From the NCBI RefSeq assembly GCF_006345805.1, contig NC_043020.1:24490001-24554000 (forward strand): 64,000 bases of DNA, read 5' to 3'. Made by a program: the position numbers and the translations under genes. The DNA comes from Octopus sinensis. Taxonomy: Eukaryota. A model generated the notes under the pieces. It was not told the origin of the DNA and did not search any database. It worked only from the letters and a program-made list of their open reading frames with translations. This document shows, piece after piece, positions 31,751-57,116 of this stretch (its first letter is position 1; each line of letters begins with the position of its first letter).

Positions 31751-32460
31751 ACGTTTTTAATGTTTTTAATGTTTTCCTTCACCAGAAGAGGCGCAGCTGC
31801 ATTTGGGATGTATATAGTGTACCCGGGTGTCATTTATACCATCAAATACGATCATCGTGTCTAATATAGACACATGGCATGCAGTGTTGAGGGTCGAGGT
31901 TGTCGATATCATTGGTCCTAGTATTTATTTTATCATCACCCCCGGACGGTTGAAATGCGAAGCTGACTTCACAAGTATTTGAACTCAGGGGGTAAAGATT
32001 TGGAATAAATACTTCAATGCATTTCTTTTTTCTCGATGCTCAACCAAATCTACCAAGCTCAAGGTCAGAAATGTCATTGAAGAGACAAGTCGATTATACC
32101 GGCCCCTACTATGTAACTGGTACAATATTTTTATCGACCCTGGAAAAATGAAACGCAAAGCCGACCTCAGTGAAGTTTTAACTCAGGACGTAGTGTAACT
32201 CTAGACATTTAGTCTGGACTTTCTCTACGGTCCGACGCTCCAGCAATTTTACACCCAACACAATAAATATCTGCAGAAATTGTGTGTGTGTGTGTGTGTG
32301 AATGTATGTGTGTATATAATCTTACACACATATATATATTATACACACACACACACATACATACATACATACATACATACATACATACATACATACATAC
32401 ATACATACATACTACATATATATATATATATATATATGTATATTATATATATATATATAT

Positions 32461-33395
32461 ATTCAGGTTGAAGACAAGACATAAAAAGCTACACTGAAAT
32501 TTTGCAGGCTACAAAAATAAACGCTAAATTCCTGTCTGGCGATAATATAATGAATGAGAAAAAGTGACAAAAACTTTCCCATAGTTCTCCCCTGCAATAA
32601 AACAGCAATAACAAGCGTCACTAAAATCATTTCATTCTGAAGATAAGCCCTAAAAGGACTTGAAACAACGCAGGACCAAGCAACTTTATTGTTTTCAACG
32701 AAACATATAAATACTAATGAGGGACTGGAACAACAAAAATATTCCTTATTAAAACATGAAAAATATAGGTTAAGACTGGAGAAGTATGGTTATGTTTGGA
32801 ATAATATATTCTGAAAAGAAAGCTGCTCTTAATACACACACATATATAATTAAGCATACATAAAGTTTCATACATATACACACATACATAGATATGTACA
32901 TACACACGTATAAATTCATGTATATATATATATATATATATATATTCAGGTTGAAGACAAGACATAAAAAGCTACACTGAAATTTTGCAGGCTACAAAAA
33001 TAAACGCTAAATTCCTGTCTGGCGATAATATAATGAATGAGAAAAAGTGACAAAAACTTTCCCATAGTTCTCCCCTGCATATAAAACAGCAATAACAAGC
33101 GTCACTAAAATCATTTCATTTGAAGATAAGCCCTAAAAGGACTTGAAACAACGCAGGACCAAGCAACTTTATGTTTTCAACGAAACATATAAATACTAAT
33201 GAGGGACTGGAACAACAAAAATATTCCTTATTAAAACATGAAAAATATAGGTTAAGACTGGAGAAGTATGGTTATGTTTGGAATAATATATTCTGAAAAG
33301 AAAGCTGCTCTTAATACACACACATATATAATTAAGCATACATAAAGTTTCATACATATACACACATACATAGATATGTACATACACACGTATAA
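32461..33395. repeat. Near-perfect tandem duplication, period ~483 bp, bounded by (TA)n
   Basis: attcaggttgaagacaagac starts at 32461 and 32944; the copies differ by a few 1-bp indels. Confidence 0.9.
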
Positions 33396-33402
33396 AATAA
33401 TG

Positions 33403-33471
<69 letters not shown>

Positions 33472-54128: not shown

Positions 54129-54531
54129 GTACCTAAAAGCCTATTTGTATTTTTAAGTGTAAATGCAGACATCTTATATATATTCAGATACACTTGTATA
54201 TATACATGCATGCATATGAACGCATGATTACAGCCCTTCCTCAACAATCACGCACACTTTCATGGGAGATGAAGAGAAGTGTAACGATGTGAGAGAGGGA
54301 TCCAATGTTTTCTCAGTAAATAACAGTGGTAGGTAACGGACAGCTTCAATGTTATTGATGGTAGGTCTGAGATTTGTTTGATGTTGACTTCTCGAAATTA
54401 TCTCTGACTCTCTAATTCCCACAGTCACTCTTTCTCCTTTCTTTCTGCCTCTATCTCTCTCTCTGTCTCTCTCTCCATCTCCCGAACTGATATCATACTG
54501 GGTACATTGTGCTCTCCGTCTATATATATAT

Positions 54532-54576
<45 letters not shown>

Positions 54577-54584
<8 letters not shown>

Positions 54585-55114
54585 TCAATATAGGGTGGCA
54601 AGGAAAATTTTGTAGAATTTTATTGCCACCAGCGGCCCAGTGGGAAAAAATTAAATAGTCATAGACCATTTTAAGTCAACATTAACAATTAAGGAACGGC
54701 CATAATAGGCCATTCACCCACTAGAAATAACAGCCAAAGCTTCTACCGCAAATAAAGATCAATTCCGTAAACAGGAGAAAATTAAAAAAACATTTACCCT
54801 GTAATTTCTTGTACGGTATACCGTTTCATCCGCTGTTTAATGGTAAACTAACCTGATTAAATTAAATCAAGCCAATCTTCCATAAGCCCTCGGATTCTTC
54901 AGCAAGAAATAGCTCAAGTCGGAACAAATATTTACACGAGGCATACCCAATCTTGCCAAGGCAATATCTGACCTAAAATTTTCAAATCGTCGCACTCGCG
55001 CCAAATTTATCGGCAGCAAATAAATATCAGCCGTCGATTCCATTACGGAATTAACCAAAAAATTCATAATTAATCAATATAGGGTGGCAAGGAAAATTGT
55101 TGTAGAATTTTATT
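54577..55114 (-). mobile_element. Inverted ~1.1-unit copy of the same hammerhead-containing repeat
   Basis: Reverse complement of the 55111-57080 unit. Internal period is 489 bp (taatcaatatagggtggca at 54582 and 55071). Starts directly after a (TA)n tract. Confidence 0.9.
54804..54910 (-). ncRNA. Type I hammerhead ribozyme (inverted unit)
   Basis: Plus strand reads tcttcag 54896-54902 (CTGAAGA), gtttc 54823-54827 (GAAAC) and tac 54812-54814 (GTA). Stem I is a perfect 8-bp atttcttg/caagaaat. Confidence 0.85.
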
Positions 55115-55399
55115 ATGGCCGTTCCTAATTGTTATGTTGAACTTAAAAATGGTCTATGACTATTTAATTTTTTCCCACTGGGCCGCTGGTGGCAATAAAA
55201 TTCTACAAAATTTTCCTTGCCACCCTCCCTATATGATTAATATGAATTTTTTGGTTAATTCCGTAATGGAATCGACGGCTGATATTTATTTGCTGCCGAT
55301 TAAATTTGGCGCGAGTGCGACGATTTGAAAAATTTAGGTCAGATATTGCCTTGGCAAGATTGGGTATGCCTCGTGTAAATATCTGTTCCGACTTGAGCT

Positions 55400-55506
55400 A
55401 TTTCTTGCTGAAGAATCCGAGGGCTTATGGAAGATTGGCTTGATTTAATTTAATCAGGTTAGTTTACCATTAAACAGCGGATGAAACGGTATACCGTACA
55501 AGAACT
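55400..55506 (+). ncRNA. Type I hammerhead ribozyme (array unit 1)
   Basis: Stem I ttcttg/caagaa; CTGAAGA 55408-55414; stem II atccg/cggat with a long internal hairpin; GAAAC 55483-55487; palindromic stem III acggtataccgt; GTA 55496-55498. Confidence 0.85.
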
Positions 55507-55882
55507 TACAGGGTAAATGTTTTTTTAATTTTCTCCTGTTTACGGAATTGATCTTTATTTGCGGTAGAAGCTTGGCTGTTATTTCTAGTGGGTGAATGCC
55601 TATTATGGCCGTTCCTTAATTGTTAATGTTGAACTTAAAAATGGTCTATGACTATTAATTTTTTCCCACTGGGCCGCTGGTGGCAATAAAATTCTACAAA
55701 ATTTTCCTTGCCACCCTATATGATTATTATGAATGTTTTGGTTAATTCCGTAATGGAATCGACGCTGATATTTATTTGCTGCCGATAAATTGGCGCGAGT
55801 GCGACGATTTGAAAATTTTAGGTCAGATATTGCCTTGGCAAGATTGGGTATGCCTCGTGTAAATATCTGTTCCGACTGAGCT

Positions 55883-55986
55883 ATTCTTGCTGAAGAATCC
55901 GAGGGCTTATGGAAGATTGGCTTGATTAATTAATCAGGTTAGTTTACCATTAAACAGCGGATGAAACGGTATACCGTACAAGAAAT
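55883..55986 (+). ncRNA. Type I hammerhead ribozyme (array unit 2)
   Basis: CTGAAGA 55890-55896, atccg/cggat, GAAAC 55963-55967, GTA 55976-55978, caagaaat. Confidence 0.85.
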
Positions 55987-56368
55987 TACAGGGGAAATGT
56001 TTTTTTAATTTTCTCCTTTACGGAATTGATCTTTATTTGCTGGTAGAAGCTTTGGCTGTTATTTCTAGTGGGTGAATGGCCTATTATGGCCGTTCCTTAA
56101 TTGTTAATGTTGAACTTAAAAATGGTCTATGACTATTTAATTTTTTTCCACTGGGCGCTGGTGGCAATAAAATTCTACAAAATTTTCCTTGCCACCCTAT
56201 ATTGATTAATTATGAATTTTTTGGTTAATTCCGTAATGGAATCGACGGCTGATATTTATTTGCTGCCGATAAATTTGGCGCGAGTGCGACGATTTGAAAA
56301 TTTTAGGTCAGATATTGCCTTGGCAAGATTGGGTATGCCTCGTGTAAATATCTGTTCCGACTTGAGCT

Positions 56369-56471
56369 ATTTCTTGCTGAAGAATCAGAGGGCTTAGAAG
56401 ATTGGCTTGATTTAATTAATCAGGTTAGTTTACCATTAAACAGGGATGAAACGGTATACCGTACAAGATAT
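56369..56471 (+). ncRNA. Type I hammerhead ribozyme (array unit 3; stem II altered)
   Basis: CTGAAGA 56377-56383, GAAAC 56448-56452, GTA 56461-56463. Stem II reads atcag/gggat here (mutation or assembly error). Confidence 0.7.
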
Positions 56472-56855
56472 TACAGGGTAAATGTTTTTTTTAATTTTCT
56501 CCTGTTTACGGAATTGATCTTTATTTGCGGTAGAAGCTTTGGCTGTTATTTCTAGTGGGTGAATGGCCTATTATGGCCGTTCCTTAATTGTTAATGTTGA
56601 ACTTAAAAATGGTCTATGACTATTTAATTTTTTCCCACTGGGCCGCTGGTGGCAATAAAATTCTACAAAATTTTCCTTGCCACCCTATATTGATTAATTA
56701 TGAATTTTTTGGTTAATTCCGTAATGGAATCGACGGCTGATATTTATTTGCTGCCGATAAATTTGGCGCGGTGCGACGATTTGAAAATTTTAGGTCAGAT
56801 ATTGCCTTGGCAAGATTGGGTATGCCTCGTGTAAATATCTGTTCCGACTTGAGCT

Positions 56856-56958
56856 ATTTCTTGCTGAAGAATCGAGGGCTTATGGAAGATTGGCTTGATT
56901 TAATAATCAGGTTAGTTTACCATTAACAGCGGATGAAACGGTATACCGTACAAGAAAT
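56856..56958 (+). ncRNA. Type I hammerhead ribozyme (array unit 4)
   Basis: atttcttg-CTGAAGA 56864-56870, GAAAC 56935-56939, GTA 56948-56950, caagaaat. Confidence 0.8.
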
Positions 56959-57078
56959 TACAGGGTAAATGTTTTTTTAATTTTCTCCTGTTTACGGAAT
57001 TGATCTTTATTTGCGGTAGAAGATTTGGCTGTTATTTCTAGTGGGTGAATGGCCTATTATGGCCGTTCCTAATTGTTA

Positions 57079-57116
<38 letters not shown>

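Follow-up and report, generated by a model that had tools for sequence, protein, structure and literature searches.

Hammerhead viroids and viroid-like circular RNAs have a similar size range, a branched fold and a hammerhead ribozyme in common with the repeat described here, but the latter has a DNA stage, shows signs of retrotransposition, and its ribozyme was found on one strand only. The closest described systems are the animal non-LTR retrozymes, a class that is already known and for which mobilisation by Penelope-like elements (PLEs) has already been proposed in print. According to the accessible text of Cervera and de la Pena 2020 (PMC7229834) and of Li, Clavereau and Pollet 2026 (bioRxiv 10.64898/2026.07.22.740005), they share with the octopus repeat a non-coding tandem unit with one type I hammerhead and a GC content under 50%, a self-paired predicted circle, a palindromic stem III of few pairs, apparent target duplications of more than 4 bp where flanks can be read, and PLEs in the genome. 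Compared to these retrozymes, the octopus unit differs in its length of ~490 nt, the long hairpin on stem II, and a score below the Rfam cut-off. Head-to-head insertions with fixed paired ends, and a fold that is kept across families, are octopus features that the accessible parts of these two papers do not describe for retrozymes. Literature searches listed no paper that describes fixed ends in pairs, a fold common to several families, or editing for retrozymes, with subscription papers and supplements as places that could contain such reports. A second point of comparison is formed by the endonuclease PLEs. In the accessible text of PMC11167929, a purified anole PLE (Poseidon) cleaves AT-rich DNA, extends both of its strands, and has two internal sites on the RNA at which it starts, and the accessible text of PMC8557442 (Neptune/Naiad) describes PLE insertions that often have an inverted truncated copy, a one-sided tail, and a tandem or inverted layout. 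As far as these texts go, the features shared with the octopus repeat are two apparent internal starts of reverse transcription, extension of both target strands, AT-rich or (TA)n targets, an inverted 5'-truncated copy, and a type I hammerhead. Unlike the PLEs described there, the octopus unit is without an ORF, the offset between its two sites is ~105 nt (~130 nt in a related family, family 2) instead of 30-40, and each arm can contain many full tandem units.

The window that we analysed is a stretch of 64,000 nt from Octopus sinensis (assembly GCF_006345805.1, contig NC_043020.1, positions 24,490,001 to 24,554,000, forward strand), and positions below refer to it. As listed in Table 1, it holds a two-armed array of the repeat, both outer ends of which sit in (TA)n. 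The inverted left arm is joined to (TA)n by its RNA 3' end at site B and contains one intact hammerhead (core at 54902), and in the right arm cuts are predicted after 55498, 55978, 56463 and 56950. The copies in the window are 480-491 nt long with a GC content of 0.36-0.38. The longest ATG-initiated ORF in the repeat has 61 codons, so the unit is non-coding, and since an ORF for a reverse transcriptase (RT) plus GIY-YIG domain is absent from the unit, it is not an autonomous PLE. In the 2.72 Gb genome, at least 269 copies were found at the best-scoring 36 of 930 candidate places, and the 150 matches listed were 96-100% identical. The arrays are short and scattered over many chromosomes, with hundreds of copies that have retrotransposition ends. 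Based on the type I hammerhead, the unit length of ~490 nt and the dispersed arrays, the unit is an animal non-LTR retrozyme and not a satellite. A 483-bp tandem duplication elsewhere in the window (32384-33428; 2.2 copies, 96%), bounded by TA runs, lacks a hammerhead and is unrelated to the retrozyme despite its similar period.

Table 1. Coordinates of the repeat array, the monomer under study and its structural elements in the window.
Feature	Position	Strand	Remarks
(TA)n target microsatellite, left flank	54521..54577	none	
Inverted left arm	54577..55114	-	monomer positions 191-487, then 1-238
Head-to-head junction	55111..55114		5' ends of both arms, 4-nt overlap
Right arm	55111..57080	+	positions 106-487 of a partial copy, three full monomers, and positions 1-132 up to site A
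Full monomers of right arm (three)	55499-55978, 55979-56463, 56464-56950	+	predicted cut to predicted cut
Monomer under study	56464..56950	+	487 nt, cut site to cut site
Helix H1	56506-56519 with 56711-56724	+	closes conserved module
H2 outer	56527-31/56642-46	+	
H2	56552-59/56634-41	+	encloses H3, site-A hairpin and H4
H3	56561-68/56575-82	+	
Site-A hairpin	56584-88/56596-600	+	small, AU-rich
Site A	56589..56595	+	loop of small AU-rich hairpin within H2
H4	56607-14/56618-25	+	
H5	56648-55/56677-84	+	no variation within family 1; base kept in family 2
Site B	56686..56701	+	single-stranded AU-rich stretch just 3' of H5
H6	56790-96/56846-52	+	three single-sided pair-keeping changes in older subfamily
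H7	56797-803/56834-40	+	
Type I hammerhead	56857..56957	+	stem I 5' strand 56857-63, CUGAAGA 56864-70
Hammerhead stem II	up to 56934	+	~55-nt hairpin extension
Hammerhead 3' part		+	GAAA 56935-38, palindromic stem III 56939-48, stem I 3' strand 56951-57
(TA)n target microsatellite, right flank	57078..57103	none	

Every tandem unit contains a type I hammerhead motif, and the window copies have the core and three stems, with predicted cleavage after GUA at 56950 and a palindromic stem III of three pairs. At the gathering threshold, Rfam gave no match in the window; matches to RF00163 were weak and limited to 2 of the 5 copies (21.5 bits versus a cut-off of 34), and the hammerhead junction was the minimum-energy fold in only two of five window copies. 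The hammerheads that bound the monomer (56377-56469 and 56864-56950) are imperfect, with two stem II mismatches in the upstream one and one C missing from stem II in the downstream one. The differences among copies are rich in indels and may include assembly errors. Among the genomic copies, 137 of 184 hammerhead regions had an exact core and stems. In an older subfamily, ~77-85% identical over the monomer, 7 of the 14 hammerhead stem pairs were changed on both sides, and none of 500 shuffles was as well paired, although these double-sided changes represent few independent events. On the opposite strand of the unit no hammerhead was found. Of note, in the circular fold of a young monomer (L032:4112-4602) the stem I 5' strand and the CUGA core are buried in a competing hairpin, which in this model might be an off state of the circle; in the folds of an older copy (L101) and of family 2, stem I is formed instead.

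The initial annotation, made by manual pairing, had proposed seven helices in the monomer and had argued that almost all their departures from Watson-Crick pairing are G-U wobbles on the + strand that would be A-C mismatches on the - strand. All seven helices are in place, their 14 arms lying within 56464-56950 and comprising 61 pairs with 7 G-U and no mismatches, with the proviso that ttaggtc and cagatatt share C56796 and so cannot both use it. Six of the seven are found in the circular minimum-energy fold of this copy, but ttaggtc/gacttga is absent from it. The circular monomer folds better than its dinucleotide shuffles: the + strand reached -138.1 kcal/mol (z -4.7 with 60 shuffles and z -3.6 with 70, none as low), and the - strand -91.3 kcal/mol (z -2.6); the - strand also beats shuffles (z -2.6, -6.3 and -4.9 in three values). 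The pairing of the monomer thus exceeds chance.

As proof of selection on RNA, the strand asymmetry did not hold up, since it is mostly a matter of composition. The + strand is rich in G and U (T183 versus A125, p 0.001; G105 versus C74, p 0.02), and because of this the asymmetry arises by itself, most of it being visible in the shuffles. The energy gap between the strands was -46.8, compared to -36.3 +/- 6.2 for shuffled sequences (z -1.7), and the corresponding z was +0.1 in an older copy and -2.5 in family 2. G-U pairs make up 16% of the real fold versus 19% in shuffles, hence there is no excess. When single changes inside helices between young and older copies were counted both ways, 14 led to G-U and 7 to A-C (p 0.09). 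One of the claimed wobbles, G56516, is an A in 137 of the 170 genomic copies, thus forming an A-U pair, and is a G in all five copies of the window array. Among 15 sequences, the 10 additional pair types in the claimed helices were all swaps between Watson-Crick and G-U pairs, none double-sided. The wobble pattern is real but by itself weak evidence, because manual pairing admits G-U and refuses A-C, and after the paired shuffles and the two-way count we dropped it as an independent argument.

The layout of the insertions was studied at the best-scoring 36 of 930 candidate places. Two arms were present at 26 of the 36 loci, and each of these two-armed arrays lies within a TA run or next to one. 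Among the 10 loci counted as one-armed, several (L032, L041) possess a second arm that is very short and stops at site B. In 25 of the 26 two-armed arrays the arms lie head-to-head, with the RNA 3' end of one arm at site A and that of its partner at site B, and 61 of 62 3' ends fall within the two windows (site A, monomer positions 121-136, ~132; site B, 230-248, ~235-238), an offset of ~105 nt. Judged by eye and without a tally, ends occur at corresponding places in the older subfamily and in two distant families, 2 and 3, and in family 2 the offset is about 130 nt. Of the 62 5' ends, 19 are located 6-28 nt after the cut; five ends scored at position 1 were set aside for possible BLAST boundary effects. 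This excess suggests either that the template has a free 5' end or that copying stalls where the ligated ends meet. The cut junction itself is without a scar (exact in 149 of 173), and arms reach up to 12 uncut units (L060). Where flanks could be read, target duplications of 13-15 bp, TA overlap included, were found (L034, L048 and L057); most of the 36 loci, including the one in the window, are in pure TA. The two fixed 3' ends likely mark where a Penelope-type enzyme begins copying, and by analogy with PLEs the layout matches internal priming at two sites of a single template, which is likely circular.

Variants within the arrays also bear on the template. Of 27 arrays with at least three copies each, 20 carry variants that are fixed across the array, and in the two-armed arrays 17 of 18 such variants are found in both arms. 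The mean substitution distance was 2.5 within arrays versus 5.8 between arrays. In total, 24 distinct variants are fixed array-wide, many in one array only, and some recur among arrays. The arrays presumably arise when one monomer is copied in a rolling manner, a circle being the simplest template, and they appear to be born tandem, in contrast to the local amplification by unequal crossover that is invoked in the accessible text of bioRxiv 10.64898/2026.07.22.740005.

Compensatory changes, on which the proposal of a selected RNA fold also depended, are lacking as double-sided changes in the claimed helices within the family of the window repeat (family 1), but are present when distant families are compared. 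The 113 distinct substitutions counted avoid helices (50 versus 66.8 +/- 5.0 expected) and avoid breaking pairs (24 versus 40.4 +/- 4.6 expected; 0 of 5000 permutations), and within family 1 a shuffle control on pair counts in the claimed helices was uninformative (500/500). Families 2 and 3 are distant, collinear families that were met beside PLE loci, and when each was folded independently the same module was kept. The alignment score with family 2 (535 nt) was 146, with at most 101 in 200 shuffles, and with family 3 (~505 nt) it was 141, with at most 93 in 100 shuffles. Registers between families were placed by hand on shared words because MAFFT misregistered H2 between families. Of the 38 pairs compared with family 2, 22 are the same, 6 have a single and 10 a double change, and none is broken; without the weak site-A hairpin, 33 pairs remain, 8 of them double. 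For family 3, represented by three copies, the 23 pairs comprise 14 same, 5 single and 4 double, again with none broken. H1 shows four double-sided and two single-sided changes over 11 pairs compared with family 2 and no broken pair; H2 outer, H2 and H3 have compensatory changes and are kept in both families, and H4 is kept in family 3 with one single-sided change. In all, five claimed helices persist in at least one of the two sister families, with pairs changed on both sides and none broken. A covariance model of family 1 places family 2 correctly but with a score of only ~11 bits (E ~0.7). The covariation, together with dispersed arrays that have retrotransposition ends, bears out the proposal that the monomer was selected as a folded molecule and not as a DNA satellite.

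The sister families have features of their own. Family 2 (L131:6960-8080, L149-L178), with at least 228 matches at 40 of 734 candidate places, is a tandem 535-nt repeat with mostly 97-100% identity between copies; its hammerhead differs (CUGACGA core, GUC cut, long stem II), and it has the same two-arm layout as family 1 with ends near positions 160 and 291. Family 3 (L209-L238; L223:1124-1625, - strand) contains only one CUGANGA in 14,344 aligned bases, and Rfam found no ribozyme in it; by eye, hammerhead-like stems are present at the corresponding position with a CCGAAGA core variant, and the word AGAAGAUCAGA is repeated. Other hammerhead repeats in the genome include a near-perfect palindrome of 1196 bp, each arm of which contains two different hammerheads (L070:636-1830), a 431-bp tandem hammerhead repeat with a microsatellite inside the unit (L072:1338-2246), and an inverted pair of long-stem hammerhead arms that flank an unrelated spacer (L136:8286-9228).

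Candidates for the partner enzyme are present in this genome. GIY-YIG domains gave at least 149 matches in the best 150 of 5029 candidates, and a young PLE family with intact copies encodes a 781-aa RT plus GIY-YIG protein with a CX4CxxC linker and ends in (TA)n. This family is Neptune-type by the criteria in the accessible text of PMC8557442. Its copies (L129-L143; ORF1 479 aa, ORF2 781 aa) are 98-100% identical, and the pLTR contains repeated TGACGTCA and CCAAT-like boxes. No canonical hammerhead was found in this family, and with blastn, nhmmer and a covariance model no pLTR sequence common to the monomer and PLEs was found in the small part of the 5029 GIY-YIG candidates covered. The young Neptune copies that were examined are partial-tandem and look single-ended. 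Of 27 PLE ORF1 starts (30 loci), 26 are preceded by the element's own pLTR, which in one case lies 1.1 kb farther upstream, and one is preceded by a family-3 copy. In the latter case (L133:8471-9110), a two-armed family-3 copy directly abuts a full-length Neptune-type PLE at its 5' end, and no TA run separates the two, an arrangement that reflects either a nested insertion or a template switch.

The unit is also present in four sequencing runs that a tool guesses to be RNA; none of the 21 runs listed is on record as RNA, which argues neither way. In a contig from one of the four (X9), eight A>G changes lie between 56801 and 56871; they were seen in 0 of 170 genomic copies and were not listed at 3% in four DNA-type runs. 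Another run (X16) has a T>C-rich version that mirrors this pattern. The variants fixed in arrays lean towards A>G as well (10 versus 5 T>C, p 0.04). The letter changes in these probable RNA runs would fit a transcribed unit in which both strands undergo A-to-I editing, and the inverted arms could cause such editing without any monomer fold. The joint from 56950 to 56464 in X9 fits a tandem transcript as well as a circle, and contigs cannot tell the two apart.

Taken together, the octopus repeat is probably a retrozyme unit that is likely transcribed, self-cut, circularised, and copied into TA microsatellites by a Penelope-like enzyme. Transcripts of an array would self-cleave at GUA and ligate into a circle, after which a Penelope RT/GIY-YIG protein would bind the H1-H5 module and nick both strands of a (TA)n target. 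Priming of one strand would then start at site A and that of the second strand at site B, the two sites being separated by ~105 nt on the same RNA. Each RT would round the template up to 12 times, and the two cDNA ends would join head-to-head. Under such a mechanism the fold would thus be selected for cutting and for recognition and copying, and not for RNA-to-RNA replication. Among the points against this reading, the site offset of ~105 nt exceeds the 30-40 bp tail of PLEs, 5' ends at 6-28 nt after the cut suit a template with a free 5' end, the hammerhead junction is the minimum-energy fold in a minority of the window copies, and no PLE with sequence in common with the monomer was found among the PLE loci covered. 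More tentatively, H1-H5 might be a conserved two-site landing pad for a Penelope RT dimer, by which one RNA circle would be copied at once from both cut ends of the TA target (double rolling-circle reverse transcription); the pad would be common to three or more families whose hammerheads differ, and circles that had undergone A-to-I editing would return G/U-rich, wobble-tolerant sequence to the genome.

The same enzyme could instead have copied a multimer that was linear, only partly cleaved and transcribed from a source array of homogeneous units, with circles absent or a by-product. The excess of 5' ends just past the cut (19 of 62 at positions 6-28), the recurrence of some fixed variants among arrays, and the mainly uncleaved RNA used by the anole PLE in vitro according to the accessible text of PMC11167929 all speak for such a template, but we regard it as unlikely, as arms reach 12 uncut units and the 24 array-wide fixed variants, many in one array only, would require frequent passage through a single monomer. 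The proposal in the initial annotation of a structured RNA replicon overreaches, since the evidence points to copies made as DNA by reverse transcription, and the opposite strand of the unit yielded no hammerhead. A viroid-like element that replicates from RNA to RNA, leaving genomic arrays as integrated by-products, would have the stable branched fold in its favour, as well as recurring variants in conflicting combinations among arrays, the T>C-rich letters in X16, which suggest edited minus-strand RNA, and a plant retrozyme that is reported in the accessible text of PMC9695139 to replicate from RNA to RNA. However, read-through of inverted arms would give minus-strand RNA anyway, the probable RNA runs carry subfamily variants that are also present in DNA-type runs, the conserved module coincides with the reverse-transcription start sites, and there is a DNA stage with hundreds of genomic copies that have retrotransposition ends, which together with the missing minus-strand hammerhead makes such a replicon very improbable. 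Even less credible is a DNA satellite, or a hairpin element acting at the DNA level, that spreads by local unequal crossover and has an incidental RNA fold: tandem arrays, a minus strand that also beats shuffles and a strand gap that is mostly composition would agree with this, but the arrays are short, located on many chromosomes and have fixed paired ends, the covariation preserves hammerhead geometry, and variants are common to both inverted arms.

To what was known of retrozymes, the analysis adds a control by which the G-U argument loses weight, covariation across three families around both start sites, and the shared-variant test. That PLEs mobilise animal retrozymes from RNA circles is a published idea with, in the accessible text of the PMC7229834 discussion and of bioRxiv 10.64898/2026.07.22.740005, little direct evidence. 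In the three octopus families the start sites can be predicted exactly, the RNA module that surrounds these sites covaries, and there is evidence of tandem birth from one template. Which RNA structure is read by the enzyme, how inverted PLE insertions originate, and whether circles are the template or not can now be tested in the existing in vitro PLE assay.
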